The position numbers and the translations under genes are program-made. From contig JAOUJM010000001.1 of assembly GCA_029883265.1 (NCBI GenBank), forward strand, positions 10,511 through 74,510: DNA of 64,000 nt, given 5' to 3'. Below are positions 902-18,732 of the stretch, piece by piece; within the stretch, counting starts at the first letter, position 1, and every line of letters begins with the position of its first letter. The stretch comes from Gammaproteobacteria bacterium. Lineage in GTDB: Bacteria > Pseudomonadota > Gammaproteobacteria > S012-40. A model generated the notes under the pieces. The model searched no databases. It saw only the letters and a program-made list of their open reading frames with translations, and was not told the origin of the DNA.

Positions 902-1108
902 TTAAAGCCTGACGCCGTTTGGACTTCGGTTTAGAAAACGAATATTAGGCGCTTTCCCAAAGTCCATACTTTTAACATTCCCAAGCTCATCAATGATTGA
1001 CGCCATATCCTTGTTATAAGATCCAAGGATTGTCGTTGTTTTTCCCGGCTCGGTCTGAAGAATTACCCCGGATGATGCCTGATGGTTTAGCGTTTTGTCT
1101 GGAACAAC
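902..1108 (-). pseudogene. Truncated orphan toxin module O15 (duplicate of the N-terminal part of module O14)
   Basis: Own translation: VVPDKTLNHQASSGVILQTEPGKTTTILGSYNKDMASIIDELGNVKSMDFG then diverges (KAPNIRFLNRSPNGVRL*). nt ~955-1108 nearly identical to ~1547-1699. Confidence 0.7.
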
Positions 1109-1303
1109 TTAATCGGTTGCACCCAAATACCAGATCATAAACTCATAGAACCCATCCCATTTTGCAGGGATTTCGCCATTCACAAAACGATCTCTAGTTG
1201 CTAGCTCAAAGTCCCAGACCCTGCCTGTAATCTTGTCATACAAATAGCAACCTTCTCCCTCTGCAGTAGTGAAGCATATATAGTTTTCTGGTACTTTCCA
1301 GAT
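1109..1303 (-). pseudogene. 3' fragment of an immunity-like gene (no start codon), fused directly behind the stop of module O14
   Basis: Own translation after the O14 stop, same frame: VIWKVPENYICFTTAEGEGCYLYDKITGRVWDFELATRDRFVNGEIPAKWDGFYEFMIWYLGATD*. No ATG/GTG/TTG start available. Confidence 0.5.
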
Positions 1304-1306
1304 GAC

Positions 1307-1699
1307 CTATACCCCAAATCCTGTCAGTTCCATTTTACCTGTTGATGTGTTTGGCCTGATCAAGACACCCAACCCTCGATTATCGATAACATCGAACCCC
1401 GGCTTAGTAGCCATGAGAATACTGTCACCTCTAGAGGTAGCAGAATTTAAGAATGGTACATTGACTTCGTTCCAAAATCCTTTTGGCCCCAGTGTTCTGA
1501 ACAACTCATCTGGCGCATTTAATACATTGAAGTTACCAGGCTTTGGACCAAAGTCCATACTTTTAACATTCCCAAGCTCATCAATGACTGACGCCATATC
1601 CTTGTTATAAGATCCAAGGATTGTCGTTGTTTTTCCCTGCTCGGTCTGAAGAATTACCCCGGATGATGCTTGATGGTTTAGCGTTTTGTTTGGAACTAC
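1307..1699 (-). CDS. Orphan toxin C-terminal module O14 (no own start; begins at VVPNK junction); family unknown, related to O9/O13
   Basis: ORF 1307..1597 extends in frame upstream to GTAGTTCCAAAC at 1699: VVPNKTLNHQASSGVILQTEQGKTTTILGSYNKDMASVIDELG...FWNEVNVPFLNSATSRGDSILMATKPG. Confidence 0.65.
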   Translation of the reverse strand, partial: VVPNKTLNHQASSGVILQTEQGKTTTILGSYNKDMASVIDELGNVKSMDFGPKPGNFNVLNAPDELFRTLGPKGFWNEVNVPFLNSATSRGDSILMATKPGFDVIDNRGLGVLIRPNTSTGKMELTGFGV

Positions 1700-1707
1700 C
1701 CACTAGT

Positions 1708-2172
1708 CTACTTTGACTCTCCCCAATTAAATCTCACATCAATCCAAGACTTACCTTCCAACACTGACAATAGCTCTAAATCACTAAACAAAGAGTTCAC
1801 GAATTTCATGAATTCCCTTAACTGTTGCTCAAATTCTCCGCTATAGCTAGAAAGACTAAAAGGGCTTTGCTGAGAAATAGTACCACGCTTCTGTACCCAT
1901 GAATCCAGACTAAAGTCTTTATCTGTCTTATCATCAATCACATAAATGACAATGTAGTCGCCCTTATCCCCGAATGCTGGATAGAATGTAAATTCCACAG
2001 AAACACCATTATCACCGCTTAGCAAATACTCGTAGCTATCTCCTGCTGGCCCCTTACTTGATACATGCTTAGTGTGTTTAAGCCTAAATCCAATACTAGT
2101 TAGACTGTCTAACATCACCAAGAATGATTCAACTTTTTTGGCTTTATCTTTTACTGGTGTGGAGTTTTTCAT
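1708..2172 (-). CDS. Putative immunity protein of module O13
   Basis: 154-aa ORF. Its ATG overlaps the toxin stop (TAATG), the position typical of toxin-immunity pairs. Confidence 0.6.
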   Translation of the reverse strand: MKNSTPVKDKAKKVESFLVMLDSLTSIGFRLKHTKHVSSKGPAGDSYEYLLSGDNGVSVEFTFYPAFGDKGDYIVIYVIDDKTDKDFSLDSWVQKRGTISQQSPFSLSSYSGEFEQQLREFMKFVNSLFSDLELLSVLEGKSWIDVRFNWGESK

Positions 2173-16267: not shown

Positions 16268-16792
16268 CTATTTAAAACCATAGATGGTTTTTATTCTATC
16301 CCATGCATCAAACCGTGTAGCCAGACTACCATTTTCTCCTAATAAAACCCTATTTTCATATATGGTTCCTAGTTCTGGTTTTCCTATGCTGTCTGCAAAC
16401 TTTTGTTCAGCTAGGAATGCTCTCGCCTCAAGATAAGACTTATTAGACATATTTTTCACACCGGAAATATCATCGAAAAAGTGTTGCCCTTCATGTGCAG
16501 TAATTGTAGCAGCTCGTTTTAACCCAGTATTTCCGGTATAAATTAGATCTTGGTTTAACTCAATTTGATTTGTACCAGGAAAATACCGACCATTAAGCCC
16601 ATCTAATTTCGAATAAACAATCTCAACTTTTCCATTTTGAATAGCAGTTGCCAATTTAACTGATCTAGCATCCCCAGTTTCCAATATACGGCTAATCATT
16701 TGAGGAGAAGGCGCTTGATTTCCGTTCGCTAACCTAACTCCATCACCCCCAAACATTACTTTACTTTCTAACTGAAGGTTGTCTGGAACAAC
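16268..16792 (-). CDS. Orphan toxin C-terminal module O2: HExxH zinc-metallopeptidase candidate
   Basis: ORF 16268..16756 extends in frame to VVPDNLQLESKV, preceded by an in-frame TAG. Motif ATITAHEGQHFFDD. Confidence 0.6.
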   Translation of the reverse strand, partial: VVPDNLQLESKVMFGGDGVRLANGNQAPSPQMISRILETGDARSVKLATAIQNGKVEIVYSKLDGLNGRYFPGTNQIELNQDLIYTGNTGLKRAATITAHEGQHFFDDISGVKNMSNKSYLEARAFLAEQKFADSIGKPELGTIYENRVLLGENGSLATRFDAWDRIKTIYGFK

Positions 16793-16814
16793 CTAATCCC
16801 AAACATCAGTCAAG

Positions 16815-17096
16815 CTAACAAACAGACTCTAGATCCTTGATTAAAACCATAACCTGATCCTGATTACATTCAACAAAGAAACTGTCGATAGTAGAAGTTG
16901 TTTGCAAAGTAATAGATTGCTTAGCTTTAAGCTTTTCTGCTAGTTCTTTTGTTACATCTTCACGATTAGAATTAGTTATATGTACCGAACACACATCCTT
17001 ACCATAAACAACCATAGCTTCGTAGGAATCTTTTAAAGACCACCATTCTCGACGATCTAAAACTCCAGCTGCCTGTTCTCTTATTAAATTAGCCAT
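16815..17096 (-). CDS. Putative immunity protein of module O1
   Basis: 93-aa ORF; ATG overlaps the O1 toxin stop. Confidence 0.6.
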   Translation of the reverse strand: MANLIREQAAGVLDRREWWSLKDSYEAMVVYGKDVCSVHITNSNREDVTKELAEKLKAKQSITLQTTSTIDSFFVECNQDQVMVLIKDLESVC

Positions 17097-17563
17097 CAGT
17101 CTACCCTAATATTATCTGTAGAGTTGAATATGCTGCGCTGCCCAGCACTATTCAAGATCAAACTTTGACTTTGTTGCTGCCTAAATATATCCAATACCAT
17201 ACGATCCCCGGGCCAGCCTGATGCATCTAGTTTAATGTCTGTCGTTCCGGGATGAGTATGACCAGACCACTTATAGCCTTTATCAGCCAAACCTTGTAAT
17301 TCAGATTTGGTTAATGGAACACCTCCAGCATTCCCTCTAAACACTAGGCGTTGACTACCATTAGTAAACAAAGCAAACTCATCACCTGTCTTTGCCGTAA
17401 GCGCTGCCAGATCAGTCACGCTTATTTGCTTCTTATGAAGAGTTGTACTTGATAATGTATCTGGTAATTGACCCAAAACCCGTTGTTGACGCTTTGACAA
17501 ATCGCCAAAGCCCCAAGCTATTTCGCTAGGAGAACTAGCTGAAATCGTCTTGTTTGGAACTAC
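17096..17563 (-). CDS. Orphan toxin C-terminal module O1, JAB/MPN-like HxH motif (paralog of O11)
   Basis: ORF 17096..17500 extends in frame to VVPNKTISASSSPSEIAWGFGDLSKRQQ.... Motifs DEFALFT ... WSGHTHPGTTDIKLDASGWPGD. Confidence 0.55.
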   Translation of the reverse strand, partial: VVPNKTISASSPSEIAWGFGDLSKRQQRVLGQLPDTLSSTTLHKKQISVTDLAALTAKTGDEFALFTNGSQRLVFRGNAGGVPLTKSELQGLADKGYKWSGHTHPGTTDIKLDASGWPGDRMVLDIFRQQQSQSLILNSAGQRSIFNSTDNIRVD

Positions 17564-17853
17564 ATACTAAATCCGCTTTTCCAATCACTTTTAGTAGTAG
17601 GATCCGACCTCATTTCTTCTAAGAAGAACTCACACGCTGAGCTTTCATCCTCAAAACACTCTTTGCCAGTCTGCAATCCTCTCTCACTATAATAAACACA
17701 CCACCGGCCATTTTCACAACGCAAGCACAACGCCTCGTCCTTTTGTTCCTCCTCCAATGAGTAAGAGCTAGGATTAAATTTCTCCTCACTCAACTTTCTT
17801 TGAAGATCATCTTTATTCATGCAATATCCCTCATCATTTTGTAACGCGCTCAA
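17560..17853 (-). CDS. Putative immunity protein of the displaced native TNT-like toxin (O0)
   Basis: 97-aa ORF. The likelier start is ATG at 17820, which has a GAGGGA Shine-Dalgarno 6 nt upstream. Its stop is the TAG inside GTAGTTCC of the next junction. Confidence 0.6.
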   Translation of the reverse strand: MSALQNDEGYCMNKDDLQRKLSEEKFNPSSYSLEEEQKDEALCLRCENGRWCVYYSERGLQTGKECFEDESSACEFFLEEMRSDPTTKSDWKSGFSM

Positions 17854-18732
17854 GATATTGGTTTGCTGGATTCAAGAGCTCCTTTACTGATTTTGGCAAC
17901 TCGTATTGGGTACCATATCCAGGCATATCAAAAGCAGGTGCAGCTGGGCCAATGCGTGTATCCGGAATTTCTTGGAGAACGCGATACACATTCAAGTTAC
18001 TCACATCTGTGCCGGGACGAAGGGATAATGTTTCTGGAGTTGTTCCTAAGGGGCTTGCGAATGTACCGCGTTCATTCCCGAGACGGCCTATTAGCTGTCC
18101 AGGTTGCAATGAGCCAATCTCATCAGCACCATAAACAAAACCTTTATTCTTCGGCCAATCCCAGAACACATTTTCTGCACCATACTTGCTGGTCAAATAT
18201 TCATTCCATTGAGCGCCTGAAACTGCTCCAGTCTTGTTTGGAACACGATCACCGCCTTTATATTTTAATATACCGCCAGCAATAAAACCATATGTTAAAC
18301 CACCCAATAGCTCTGGATTCTCCCTGTTCTGCCACAAGTTCCTCAGACTTTGGACCTTTCTATCTGAAAATTCGGTACTAGTAGGAAAACCCAGCTTATC
18401 TAACTTAAAGAAACTATTAAAATTTAAAGAGAGGTCATTAAACTCTTCCCAGATATTTTTTCCTATATCTAGCAAAACCTCTAAAGTCTCATTTGTCAAT
18501 CTGTCACCAAGATCTTTATGAGCATTTAGGGTTCCTTTACTGAATCTCAATGCGTAATCACCCACATCTCCGTTTTGTTTCTGCTGGTTACTCCGGCCCA
18601 AAACAACCCCATTAATCTGATCAAGTTGCTGCATTGCCTCTTCTAAATTTTGTTGACTCTCAGAAACCTCTCCAACCCCCTCCTCCTTACTATGTCCCGC
18701 CAACGTCAATGGTAAATCCACTTCCTGGCCAT
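17834..18732 (-). CDS. Displaced native 3' end of the giant toxin gene (O0): ~165-aa pre-toxin segment, VPNK junction (18233-18244) and TNT-like NAD+ glycohydrolase domain
   Basis: ORF 17834..18817. The first 28 codons are encoded by the IS66 left end. The next 3 (HGQ) span the IR tip and the 8-bp duplication, and native sequence resumes at EVDLPLTLAGHSKEEG. C-terminal GQLIGRLGNERGTFASPLGTTPETLSLRPGTDVSNLNVYRVLQEIPDTRIGPAAPAFDMPGYGTQYELPKSVKELL matches the TNT pattern (R-x-G...G-x-F-x-S-P-x-G-T...Y-x-V...G-x-x-A-P-x-F...G-x-G-x-Q-Y). Confidence 0.75.
18725..18732. repeat. 8-bp target-site duplication, left copy (CTGGCCAT)
   Basis: Identical octamer immediately outside both IRs (18725-18732 and 22840-22847). 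Confidence 0.85.

Follow-up and report, generated by a model that had tools for sequence, protein, structure and literature searches.

What becomes of a giant toxin gene when the DNA beyond its 3′ end is filled with toxin-like open reading frames (ORFs) that have no start codons? This question is raised by a stretch of 64,000 nucleotides (the window; positions 10,511 to 74,510 of contig JAOUJM010000001.1, assembly GCA_029883265.1) whose proteins recur in two metagenome-assembled genomes labelled “Gammaproteobacteria bacterium.” The window carries a giant gene for a LysM-type RHS/YD-repeat protein and, below it on the same strand, a long row of short toxin-type segments alternating with small ORFs. 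We consider it probable, at roughly 80%, that the giant gene encodes a polymorphic toxin and that this region forms its 3′ cassette field, built from motif-delimited cassettes together with the grafting of transposon cargo. Toxin segments are numbered O0 to O16 and immunity-like ORFs I0 to I15 in this report; the segments called O8 to O15 in a preliminary description of the same DNA are O9 to O16 here. All features are collected in Table 1.

Transposon Cargo Forms the Present C-Terminus of the Giant Protein

According to Pfam, the giant protein contains RHS_repeat (3e-68), DUF6531, and LysM (3e-16) domains, and one strongly hydrophobic segment of about 19 residues lies C-terminal of LysM. The LysM and post-LysM region is common to its relatives, and the C-termini vary among them. 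The canonical PxxxxDPxGL motif was not found in this protein, and Pfam reports neither an RHS core-end domain nor two-partner-secretion or haemagglutinin repeat domains. The junction peptide of this system is VVPN/D-K, not the CdiA-type VENN.

The end of the giant ORF lies within an insertion sequence (IS) of the IS66 family, called element 1. Pfam recognizes DDE_Tnp_IS66 in TnpC of this element (5e-85) and in that of a second copy described below, and the TnpB_IS66 assignment comes from a precomputed hit on an identical element in another locus (L003). The left ends of the two copies, at 18733 and 6847, read GTAAGCGTCC[T/C]AAACTCCGCACC, and their inverted-repeat partner is a 33-nt sequence, GTAAGCGTCCAAAACTCTGCCCC, found at residue 6055 of the giant protein and at the start of O8. 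Apart from these 33 nt, no homology was found between the array and the giant gene. The inverted repeat (IR) consensus, GTAAGCGTCC.AAACTC.GC.CC, is present at element ends only. The left (IRL) and right (IRR) repeats of element 1 agree at 19 of 23 positions, and no inner IRR or IR-like sequence occurs near the tnpC end of either element. Therefore, element 1 extends from 18733 to 22839 and includes its cargo, a start-less toxin ORF and the gene for an ankyrin-repeat immunity protein. It is flanked by a perfect 8-bp duplication of its target, CTGGCCAT. IRs that begin with GTAAGCG and target duplications of 8 bp are hallmarks of the IS66 family.

When element 1 and one copy of the duplication are removed in silico, a single ORF of 6350 amino acids without any stop codon is restored. 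The empty site would read ...AATGGGTATGGCCAGGAAGTGGATTTACC... / ...AATGGGTATGGCCAGGAAGTGGATTTACCATTG..., the protein runs from ...NGYGQ directly into EVDLPLTLAGHS..., and the ORF ends in the TNT domain of O0. Because the ORF is restored, O0 represents the C-terminus that the giant gene had ancestrally, and is not a classical orphan. The present fused ORF of 6384 amino acids is likewise intact and was seen on contigs of four samples or runs.

The same element end exists at another site. A metagenomic contig (L095; JGI Ga0224506_10003679, 1-10093) matches the window at 100% identity over 99 nt that end with the final base of the IRR (22839), and then continues into unrelated DNA. About 5.5 kb from the IR, this contig has a CRISPR-Cas locus of type I-F, in which Pfam confirms Cas1 and Cas2/3. 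This second context, the target duplication, and the restoration of the ORF together mean that element 1 is mobile as a unit with its cargo. As judged from these sequences, the lipase-like C-terminus of the giant protein was grafted by transposition, with the IRR translated as the linker VSVQNSAP. The cargo toxin has a GHSLGG motif, weak Pfam hits to Lipase_3 and Thioesterase, a precomputed Phospholipase-like hit, and 2173 homologues at E<1e-3, so its domain is widespread.

A degenerate solo IS66-type IR, GTAACCGTGCAAAACTCCCCACC, with four mismatches to the consensus, lies just upstream of the giant gene (41963-41985, minus strand). Possibly an earlier IS66 event left it behind as a scar.

A Second Cargo Transposon Interrupts a Junction

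Element 2, within the array, is 87% identical to element 1 over 2268 bp corresponding to the transposase genes. Its cargo pair, O8 and I8, is unrelated to the cargo of element 1, yet is arranged alike, with a start-less toxin ORF that passes through the IRR. The 10-codon linker encoded by the IR is common to both elements, with 9 of 10 residues identical. Element 2 abuts GTAGTTCCA, part of a toxin junction, in frame, such that VVP is joined to VSVQNSAPRK. It possesses IRs, and its flanks, TAGTTCCA and TATCACTG, do not form a target duplication.

Beyond element 2, O9 opens with a pre-toxin remnant of 125 codons. This long remnant, together with flanks that are not a duplication, suggests an IS-associated rearrangement, by which O9-O16 were probably joined to the field as the 3′ end of another toxin gene. 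The preliminary description had recognized neither that both IS66 copies carry toxin/immunity cargo nor that O0 was once the end of the giant gene and has since been cut off from it.

A short peptide, VD(L/F)xLTLAG(H/S)S, occurs in the pre-toxin remnants of both O0 (18690-18724) and O9 (6480-6515), each time on the minus strand; in the giant gene it stands immediately past the IS66 insertion point. It may represent a second conserved landmark of the pre-toxin linker.

An Array of 17 Start-Less Segments

In total, 17 co-directional toxin-type segments occupy the minus strand from 902 to 18724, and the strand below the giant gene is almost filled by alternating open segments. The toxin segments are 130-190 codons long (254 for O8) and have no start codon at the 5′ end. 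Their first codons are GTA, GTT, TTT, ATT, or GAT, and the first ATG, GTG, or TTG appears 12-90 codons downstream. All 15 full-length segments are unbroken ORFs of 130-254 codons. A small ORF follows nearly every one of them, and two follow O3. Thirteen of 16 pairs have a gap of −4 to +5 nt between toxin stop and immunity start; for the start codons chosen, the other three have gaps of +13, +12, and −19 nt. From immunity stop to the next junction motif the spacer is −4 to +1 nt in 12 of 15 cases (−4 to +22 nt overall), and in five spacers the TAG stop of the immunity gene constitutes nucleotides 2-4 of the next motif.

The preliminary description counted 16 units in this array and skipped 9745-10509. 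It placed each small ORF at −4 to +5 nt, which is correct for the 13 pairs and not for the other three, and its two ORFs after O3 are confirmed. Of the two segments that it reported to contain no Met codon, 2880-3320 indeed has none; 14260-14676 has an in-frame ATG at codon 82.

Sigma-70-like promoter matches in 900-18800 are less frequent than in shuffled sequences (23 vs. 43.5 +/- 6.3), and terminator-like sites occur at chance level. Both observations would fit a compact array transcribed by read-through but prove nothing, the scan being uninformative. The end of the array that is farthest from the giant gene (the O15/O16 duplication, I15, and the IS110-family gene) is decaying.

The Junction Is Conserved at the DNA Level

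The segments share the peptide (V/F/I/D/R)VP(N/D)(K/N/S/T), which is present in every one of them at or near the first codon and is encoded by 13-15 nt, GTWGTTCCARACA. Sixteen segments begin at the sequence GTTCCARACA, and the 17th junction, that of O8, is the GTAGTTCCA cut by the IS end. The 16 copies of GTTCCARACA lie between 1096 and 18244, every one on the minus strand, with none elsewhere in the 64 kb, where 0.38 copies would be expected by chance; none of 100 shuffles reached 16. The long co-directional minus-strand array of start-less segments from 902 to about 18.7 kb, as proposed previously, is thereby borne out far beyond chance.

Every junction uses CCA for Pro and C-ending codons for Asn or Asp, and the usage of these codons in this DNA is 34-44% and about 25-33%, respectively. 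This fixed choice despite the available alternatives means that the junction is conserved at the DNA level, beyond the need for the peptide. The synonymous positions of the motif are invariant at all junctions and also in other genomes. For example, the full-length Agarivorans protein P0013 has the junction ...KFSVVPDSADN, encoded by GTAGTTCCAGACAGT (motif at L008:19211), and the motif is likewise present in L087, L090, and L091. Alignments with homologues start just past VVPNK, which makes the motif an adaptor that lies outside the toxin fold. The opposite boundary can be seen at the 3′ end of the I0 homologue, which is ATG TGA CAAAA in Agarivorans and ATG TAG TTCCAAAC in the window. From this comparison, the join lies within a nucleotide or two of the stop codon.

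Two other identities for the motif were rejected. A DNA uptake sequence or Chi-like site would not be absent from the other 46 kb of the window, and the target of an IS110 bridge RNA does not fit an IS110 element that sits inside O16 and not at a motif.

Cassettes Are Shared with Other Arrays and Scaffolds

I11 belongs to a cluster at 90% identity that has members from other metagenomes. In three loci (L087-L089), O11/I11 is part of an array that has the same junction motif and other neighbors. There, an upstream Tox-GHH cassette replaces O10, and a downstream RES-domain cassette replaces O12. The window and L087 are 89% identical in nucleotide sequence from the first base of the motif 5′ of O11 to the motif 3′ of I11, and are unrelated outside these limits. 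Between these two arrays the synonymous divergence (dS) is 0.3-0.5, and the ratio of nonsynonymous to synonymous change (dN/dS) is 0.14 for the start-less O11 and 0.19 for I11. Purifying selection, whose absence from relatives the preliminary description would have counted against its proposal, is thus observed for this cassette.

The O11-type toxin is also found on other scaffolds. In L090 (JGI 3300077122; 1646-2344) it is joined to a classical Rhs core end, ...DPLGLSCKEGVPDK (DPLGL), encoded by GGTGTTCCAGACAAG, through a VPDK junction whose DNA is GTTCCAGACA; a second Rhs core-end fragment with a different toxin is present on the same contig. Thus, the junction is common to classical Rhs proteins and LysM-type giant proteins. 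In L091, an O11-type toxin stands behind yet another pre-toxin region (...IQGRVPNK), and the motif is retained at the 3′ end of the I11 cassette though unrelated DNA comes next. Given the exact motif boundaries and the varied scaffolds, the cassettes are motif-bounded units common to several scaffolds. The O0/I0 and O11/I11 modules co-occur as pairs in other genomes, and in Agarivorans (L008) a homologous gene of 86 amino acids is kept after the toxin that is homologous to O0.

Identities of the Toxin and Immunity Segments

Only O0, among all the modules, matches the TNT profile (Pfam, 2e-20), and a PDB sequence search returned NADases for it at 5e-6. The PDB search, extended to all modules, yielded TNT-type NADases only. 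Most toxin and immunity segments have no match in Pfam, NCBIfam (ten modules), or PDB, and the immunity-like ORFs give only weak Imm59 and Imm27 hits in Pfam. With hhalign, O11 and O13 are related (E 5.5e-5), and O1 and O12 weakly so (E 0.004).

These results alter several motif-level assignments of the preliminary description. Its HNH-like O5 and Pol-beta nucleotidyltransferase O6 agree with the LHH and NTP_transf_2 hits in Table 1. Of five modules that it regarded as TNT-like, O0 is retained, and O3, O7, O11, and O13 have no Pfam hit at E<=0.1 and hhalign probabilities below 2%. Three modules that it grouped as related unknowns (O10, O14, and O15) are unrelated by hhalign.

For six modules (O0, O1, O3, O4, O9, and O11), homologues form the extreme C-terminus of full-length Rhs, LysM-RHS, CdiA-type, or Tc-type proteins. 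O0 is 69% identical to the C-terminus of the Agarivorans LysM-RHS protein P0013, and O9 is 43% identical to that of the Burkholderia LysM-RHS protein P0024, whose junction is LGIVPDG. O1 shares 41-69% identity with the C-termini of 11 long Rhs, CdiA-type, LysM-RHS, Tc-type, and unannotated proteins. The corresponding values are 57-61% for O3 (P0026, a LysM-RHS protein, and the Rhs proteins P0031 and P0032) and 43-72% for O4 (CdiA-type and Rhs proteins). No full-length partner was identified for O2, O5-O8, O10, or O12-O15 in word-based searches with concatenated modules, which were saturated by hits to O1, O3, and O4. On this evidence we regard the modules as genuine polymorphic-toxin C-terminal domains.

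Among the immunity proteins, only the two borne by the IS66 elements (21095-21823 and 9194-9742) have hydrophobic, lipobox-like N-termini, and those of the cassettes look cytosolic. This suggests that the cargo toxins may act in the periplasm and the cassette toxins in the cytoplasm. An AlphaFold2 model of O8 made without an alignment was unusable (predicted local distance difference test score, 35). A likeness of O8 to lytic transglycosylases, suggested by a motif, is not claimed here.

Origin of the Cassette Field

In the prevailing view, polymorphic toxins gain diversity when the gene recombines homologously with silent cassettes that lie downstream. We propose that in this locus an IS66-family element bearing a lipase-like toxin and an exported ankyrin immunity protein inserted in frame into the linker region of the giant gene. 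Its cargo toxin thereby became the new C-terminus, and the TNT domain of O0 and the whole cassette field were disconnected. A second element with other cargo lies in a junction motif, again in frame. Fourteen segments (O1-O7 and O10-O16) are compact toxin-plus-immunity units, each with its toxin starting exactly at the junction. We favor gain, loss, and reordering of these cassettes via recombination at or next to the junction, because cassette boundaries and array content vary between populations. The cassette toxins are most likely silent, since they have no start codon and a stop codon lies directly upstream. In contrast to them, each immunity gene starts on its own; its product would neutralize the neighboring toxin and probably protects against kin that fire it. 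The fused giant protein is presumably made and delivered.

Several findings weigh against this proposal. The expressed gene is now without a junction motif, so the cassettes are not currently movable onto it at that site. Any role as a “library” would therefore belong to the past at most, or would depend on excision of the IS. Among the ORFs of the window that were submitted to Pfam, the IS66 and IS110 transposases are the only recombinases, and a match of 15 nt is short for exchange that depends on RecA. Just five in-frame codons precede the IR in L095 and the cargo toxin is unfused there, so in-frame fusion is not obligatory; for the two in-frame insertions of the window the joint chance is about 1 in 36. 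The IR-encoded linker is absent from the 150 best-scoring of the 2173 cargo-toxin homologues, whose sequences were scanned. Further copies of the element were found neither in plasmid nor in viral collections, and a metagenome scan gave one new context (L095). No VVPN motif array was found in 78 other genomic loci of the LysM-RHS family, and thus the array is lineage-specific; classical orphans with upstream homology retained occur in 4 of these 78 loci. Finally, the purifying selection on O11 may date from its attachment to active genes in other lineages. The view in the preliminary description that the array is a silent toxin library for the giant protein is therefore changed in part. The modules are real C-terminal toxins and the array follows the ancestral 3′ end, but the expressed gene does not carry the motif, O0 is not a recombination orphan, and use as a library is something that we infer. 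The comparison of arrays among relatives that it had suggested is similarly divided between O11/I11, found in the L087 array with other neighbors, and the 78 LysM-RHS loci that have no array.

One alternative is that the field is simply a graveyard, in which the cassettes are inert leftovers of C-terminal displacements, selection acts on the immunity genes alone, and the motif persists as a formerly expressed junction. The loss of the motif from the expressed gene, the rarity of motif arrays in the LysM-RHS family, and the signs of ongoing decay (the O15/O16 duplication, truncated I15 and O16, and three IS insertions) would all be expected on such grounds. Nevertheless, we consider this unlikely when every one of the 15 full-length toxin segments is uninterrupted, a start-less toxin has evolved between diverged arrays with a dN/dS of 0.14, and the synonymous motif positions are invariant even in other genomes. 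It is less probable still that GTTCCARACA is the core site of a dedicated, integron-like recombinase that is encoded elsewhere and moves cassettes as units. Invariance of the DNA in excess of what the peptide needs, exact cassette boundaries, near-zero spacers with stop codons inside the site, and retention of the motif 3′ of the I11 cassette beside unrelated DNA in L091 are properties that such a system would share. Against it, the ORFs of the 64 kb that were submitted to Pfam include no integrase or recombinase gene besides those of the IS66 and IS110 elements, and the motif is an ordinary in-frame junction of full-length proteins. The site is also very short, and the near-zero spacers show no attC-like structured region (no folding or repeat search having been made). 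We give hardly any credence to the idea that the start-less segments are expressed alone, as stand-alone toxins, by internal or non-canonical starts or by reinitiation. Upstream immunity stops do abut or overlap the first toxin codon and could allow coupling, and gene callers do call truncated internal ORFs. However, no first codon is a start, homologues align from segment residues 3-8 such that internal starts 12-90 codons in would truncate the domain, and no delivery domain would be present.

The contribution of the transposons can be judged separately. Our tentative suggestion, which we hold at somewhat less than even odds, is that certain IS66-type transposons form a family that evolved as carriers of start-less toxins and their immunity genes. 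The IR would serve as a universal linker for one-step grafting into the 3′ region of delivery genes, alongside the exchange of compact cassettes at a 10-nt core that doubles as the VPN/D-K junction. Only slightly more doubtful is the possibility that the in-frame insertion was an accident that inactivated the TNT toxin, with cargo that is merely DNA captured once by aberrant transposition. The unfused element end of L095 in a non-toxin context, the failure to find other examples among cargo-toxin homologues or in plasmid and viral collections, and a chance of 1/6 that any one insertion has the right orientation and frame could all be accommodated by an accident. It is harder to reconcile with two elements whose unrelated cargoes share a start-less toxin ORF through the IRR and a nearly identical 10-codon linker, and with the fused ORF remaining intact across samples. 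Moreover, both insertions here are in frame with a toxin reading frame.

Whether adapted or accidental, a matter on which we can only infer, IS66-family transposons whose toxin-immunity cargo is read out through an inverted repeat constitute a second route of diversification. There is direct sequence evidence that a transposon has replaced, in frame, the toxin tip with which a protein of 6,000 residues worked, while bringing its own immunity gene. The literature searched held no description of toxin-domain replacement by transposon cargo. Should cargo-bearing IS of this sort prove common, they would account for the passage of toxin domains from one species or delivery scaffold to another, unrelated one, and they would offer a natural tool to tag or re-arm secreted proteins. 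In addition, cassettes cut to the nucleotide at one 10-nt junction, whose synonymous sites are invariant across genomes, indicate a constraint on the DNA itself.

Comparison with Known Systems

Orphan toxin/immunity arrays are known for polymorphic toxin systems of the Rhs, CdiA, and MafB types (Zhang et al. 2012, PMC3482391; see also Koskiniemi et al. 2014, PMC3967940, and Jamet et al. 2015, PMC4287609). The array described here is an orphan array of this known kind. As in those systems, start-less C-terminal toxin segments and immunity genes follow one another in tandem behind a full-length gene, the point of exchange is marked by a short conserved peptide at the junction, and toxin domains are common to several scaffolds. 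In contrast, the scaffold here is a LysM-type giant RHS protein without a PxxxxDPxGL core end, the VVPN/D-K junction has an invariant 10-nt core with spacers trimmed to −4 to +1 nt, 14 segments have no upstream homology beyond about 15 nt, and the top “orphan” was made by transposon insertion rather than by recombination. The longest orphan array of which we are aware is that of Escherichia coli EC869, with 11 cdiA-CT/cdiI pairs, and the 17 segments here exceed that number.

Both elements resemble other IS66-family members in their tnpA/tnpB/tnpC genes and in terminal IRs starting with GTAAGCG, as well as, for element 1, in the 8-bp target duplication. Unlike typical IS66 and cargo-carrying (“transporter”) IS, they hold 1.3-1.8 kb of cargo between tnpC and the IRR, comprising a start-less toxin and an immunity gene. 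The toxin ORF exits through the IRR, and insertion can therefore graft the toxin onto a host gene. Burkholderia loci for contact-dependent growth inhibition (CDI) are also polymorphic toxin genes mobilized by a transposable element, the “megacircle” transposon, which is reported to move the whole CDI locus (PMC6350997). The cargo here is the C-terminal toxin domain and immunity gene alone, and it becomes fused to a resident gene.

Integron arrays likewise consist of tandem, co-directional, promoter-less cassettes with a short conserved site, stop codons inside that site, and content that varies between strains. Unlike integron sites, the site here is coding and forms an in-frame junction of full-length proteins, and each cassette is a gene pair whose first gene has no start. 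Spacers of −4 to +22 nt leave no room for attC, and no intI or tyrosine recombinase gene was found among the ORFs submitted to Pfam, which did not include several ORFs of 41-64 kb. In shufflons, the recombinase Rci swaps C-terminal segments of PilV by inversion between inverted repeats. The window shares with these systems the storage of alternative C-terminal coding segments downstream and short conserved repeats within coding sequence. Here, in contrast, all repeats are direct, and no such recombinase is present in the window.

Table 1. Coordinates of the giant toxin gene, the cargo transposons, and the cassette field in the window
Feature	Position	Strand	Remarks
IS110-family transposase gene, array end	1-738	−	Runs off window; Pfam DEDD_Tnp_IS110 1e-17
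O16, truncated duplicate of O15	902-1108	−	152 nt, 96.7% identical; homology stops at 957
O15 (VVPNK) + I15	1109-1699	−	I15 (1109-1306) is a start-less 65-codon fragment, resembles only C-terminal part of I5
O14 (DVPNK) + I14	1708-2606	−	
O13 (VVPDS; no ATG) + I13	2605-3320	−	Related to O11
O12 (IVPDS; GHVHP motif) + I12	3321-4069	−	Weak hhalign link to O1
O11 (VVPNK) + I11	4071-4799	−	Cassette common to other metagenomic arrays
O10 (FVPNK) + I10	4799-5661	−	
I9, immunity-like ORF	5676-6059	−	
O9, long 3′ remnant of a toxin gene	6041-6846	−	Pre-toxin linker 6464-6846; junction FVPDNK 6449-6463; SGHYQP motif in toxin
Element 2, IS66-family cargo transposon, 3654 bp	6847-10500	+	IRL 6847-6869; tnpA 6931-7290; tnpB 7278-7634; tnpC 7647-9185; IRR 10478-10500
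Element 2 cargo	I8 9194-9742; O8 9745-10500	−	I8 with signal peptide; O8 start-less toxin
Half junction motif GTAGTTCCA (VVP)	10501-10509	−	Interrupted by element 2 IRR, fused to IRR in frame
O7 (VVPNN) + I7	10506-11596	−	No family hit
O6 (VVPNT; nucleotidyltransferase fold) + I6	11593-12539	−	Pfam NTP_transf_2 7e-5
O5 (VVPNK; LHH/HNH nuclease) + I5	12536-13544	−	Pfam LHH 1e-8
O4 (VVPNK) + I4	13541-14676	−	
O3 (FVPDN) + I3a (Cys-rich, 78 aa) + I3b (132 aa)	14677-15793	−	
O2 (VVPDN; HEGQH motif) + I2	15794-16792	−	No Pfam or NCBIfam hit
I1, immunity-like ORF	16815-17096	−	ATG overlaps O1 stop; no family hit
O1, cassette toxin (VVPNK; WSGHTHPG motif)	17096-17563	−	
I0, immunity-like ORF for TNT toxin, 86 aa	17560-17820	−	TAG stop inside next junction motif; weak Imm59 hit
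O0, ancestral C-terminus of giant gene	17834-18724	−	Pre-toxin linker 18251-18724; junction DRVPNK 18235-18250; TNT NADase domain to 17837
Target-site duplication CTGGCCAT, left copy	18725-18732		Identical 8-mer at 22840-22847
Element 1, IS66-family cargo transposon, 4107 bp	18733-22839	+	IRL 18733-18755; tnpA 18817-19173; tnpB ~19140-19523; tnpC 19554-21044; IRR 22817-22839; cargo on minus strand
Element 1 cargo immunity gene, ankyrin-repeat protein	21095-21823	−	Signal/lipobox-like N-terminus; Pfam Ank_2 8e-12
Element 1 cargo toxin, start-less lipase/phospholipase-like domain	21847-22839	−	Opens through IRR (VSVQNSAPGK...); present C-terminus of giant protein
Target-site duplication CTGGCCAT, right copy	22840-22847		Codons Y-G-Q of giant protein
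Giant LysM-type RHS/YD-repeat toxin gene, 6384 aa	21847-41001	−	Body to 22840; last 330 codons (22839-21850) are transposon cargo

Genomic Surroundings

An exact look-up of TnpC gave no match, and no type VI secretion, two-partner secretion, or other known toxin-export genes are present in the window. Directly 5′ of the giant gene and in the same direction is a flagellar cluster (48800-64000, minus strand) that encodes FlgG-, FlgA-, FlgI-, FliF-, FliH-, FliI-, FliN-, and FliP-like proteins and a FliA-like sigma factor. The interval between this cluster and the giant gene (42370-46089) holds a gene for an omptin-family outer-membrane protease (NCBI name of a cluster member), an ORF of 310 amino acids without a Pfam match, and a gene for a protein of 424 amino acids with DUF6973 and a weak wnt-family hit.

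In Agarivorans (GCA_030547955.1, L008:9491-9820), a phage-integrase SAM-like fragment of 109 amino acids lies directly 5′ of the LysM-RHS gene, beside mnmE. This adjoining fragment suggests that the Agarivorans toxin gene resides at an island insertion site.

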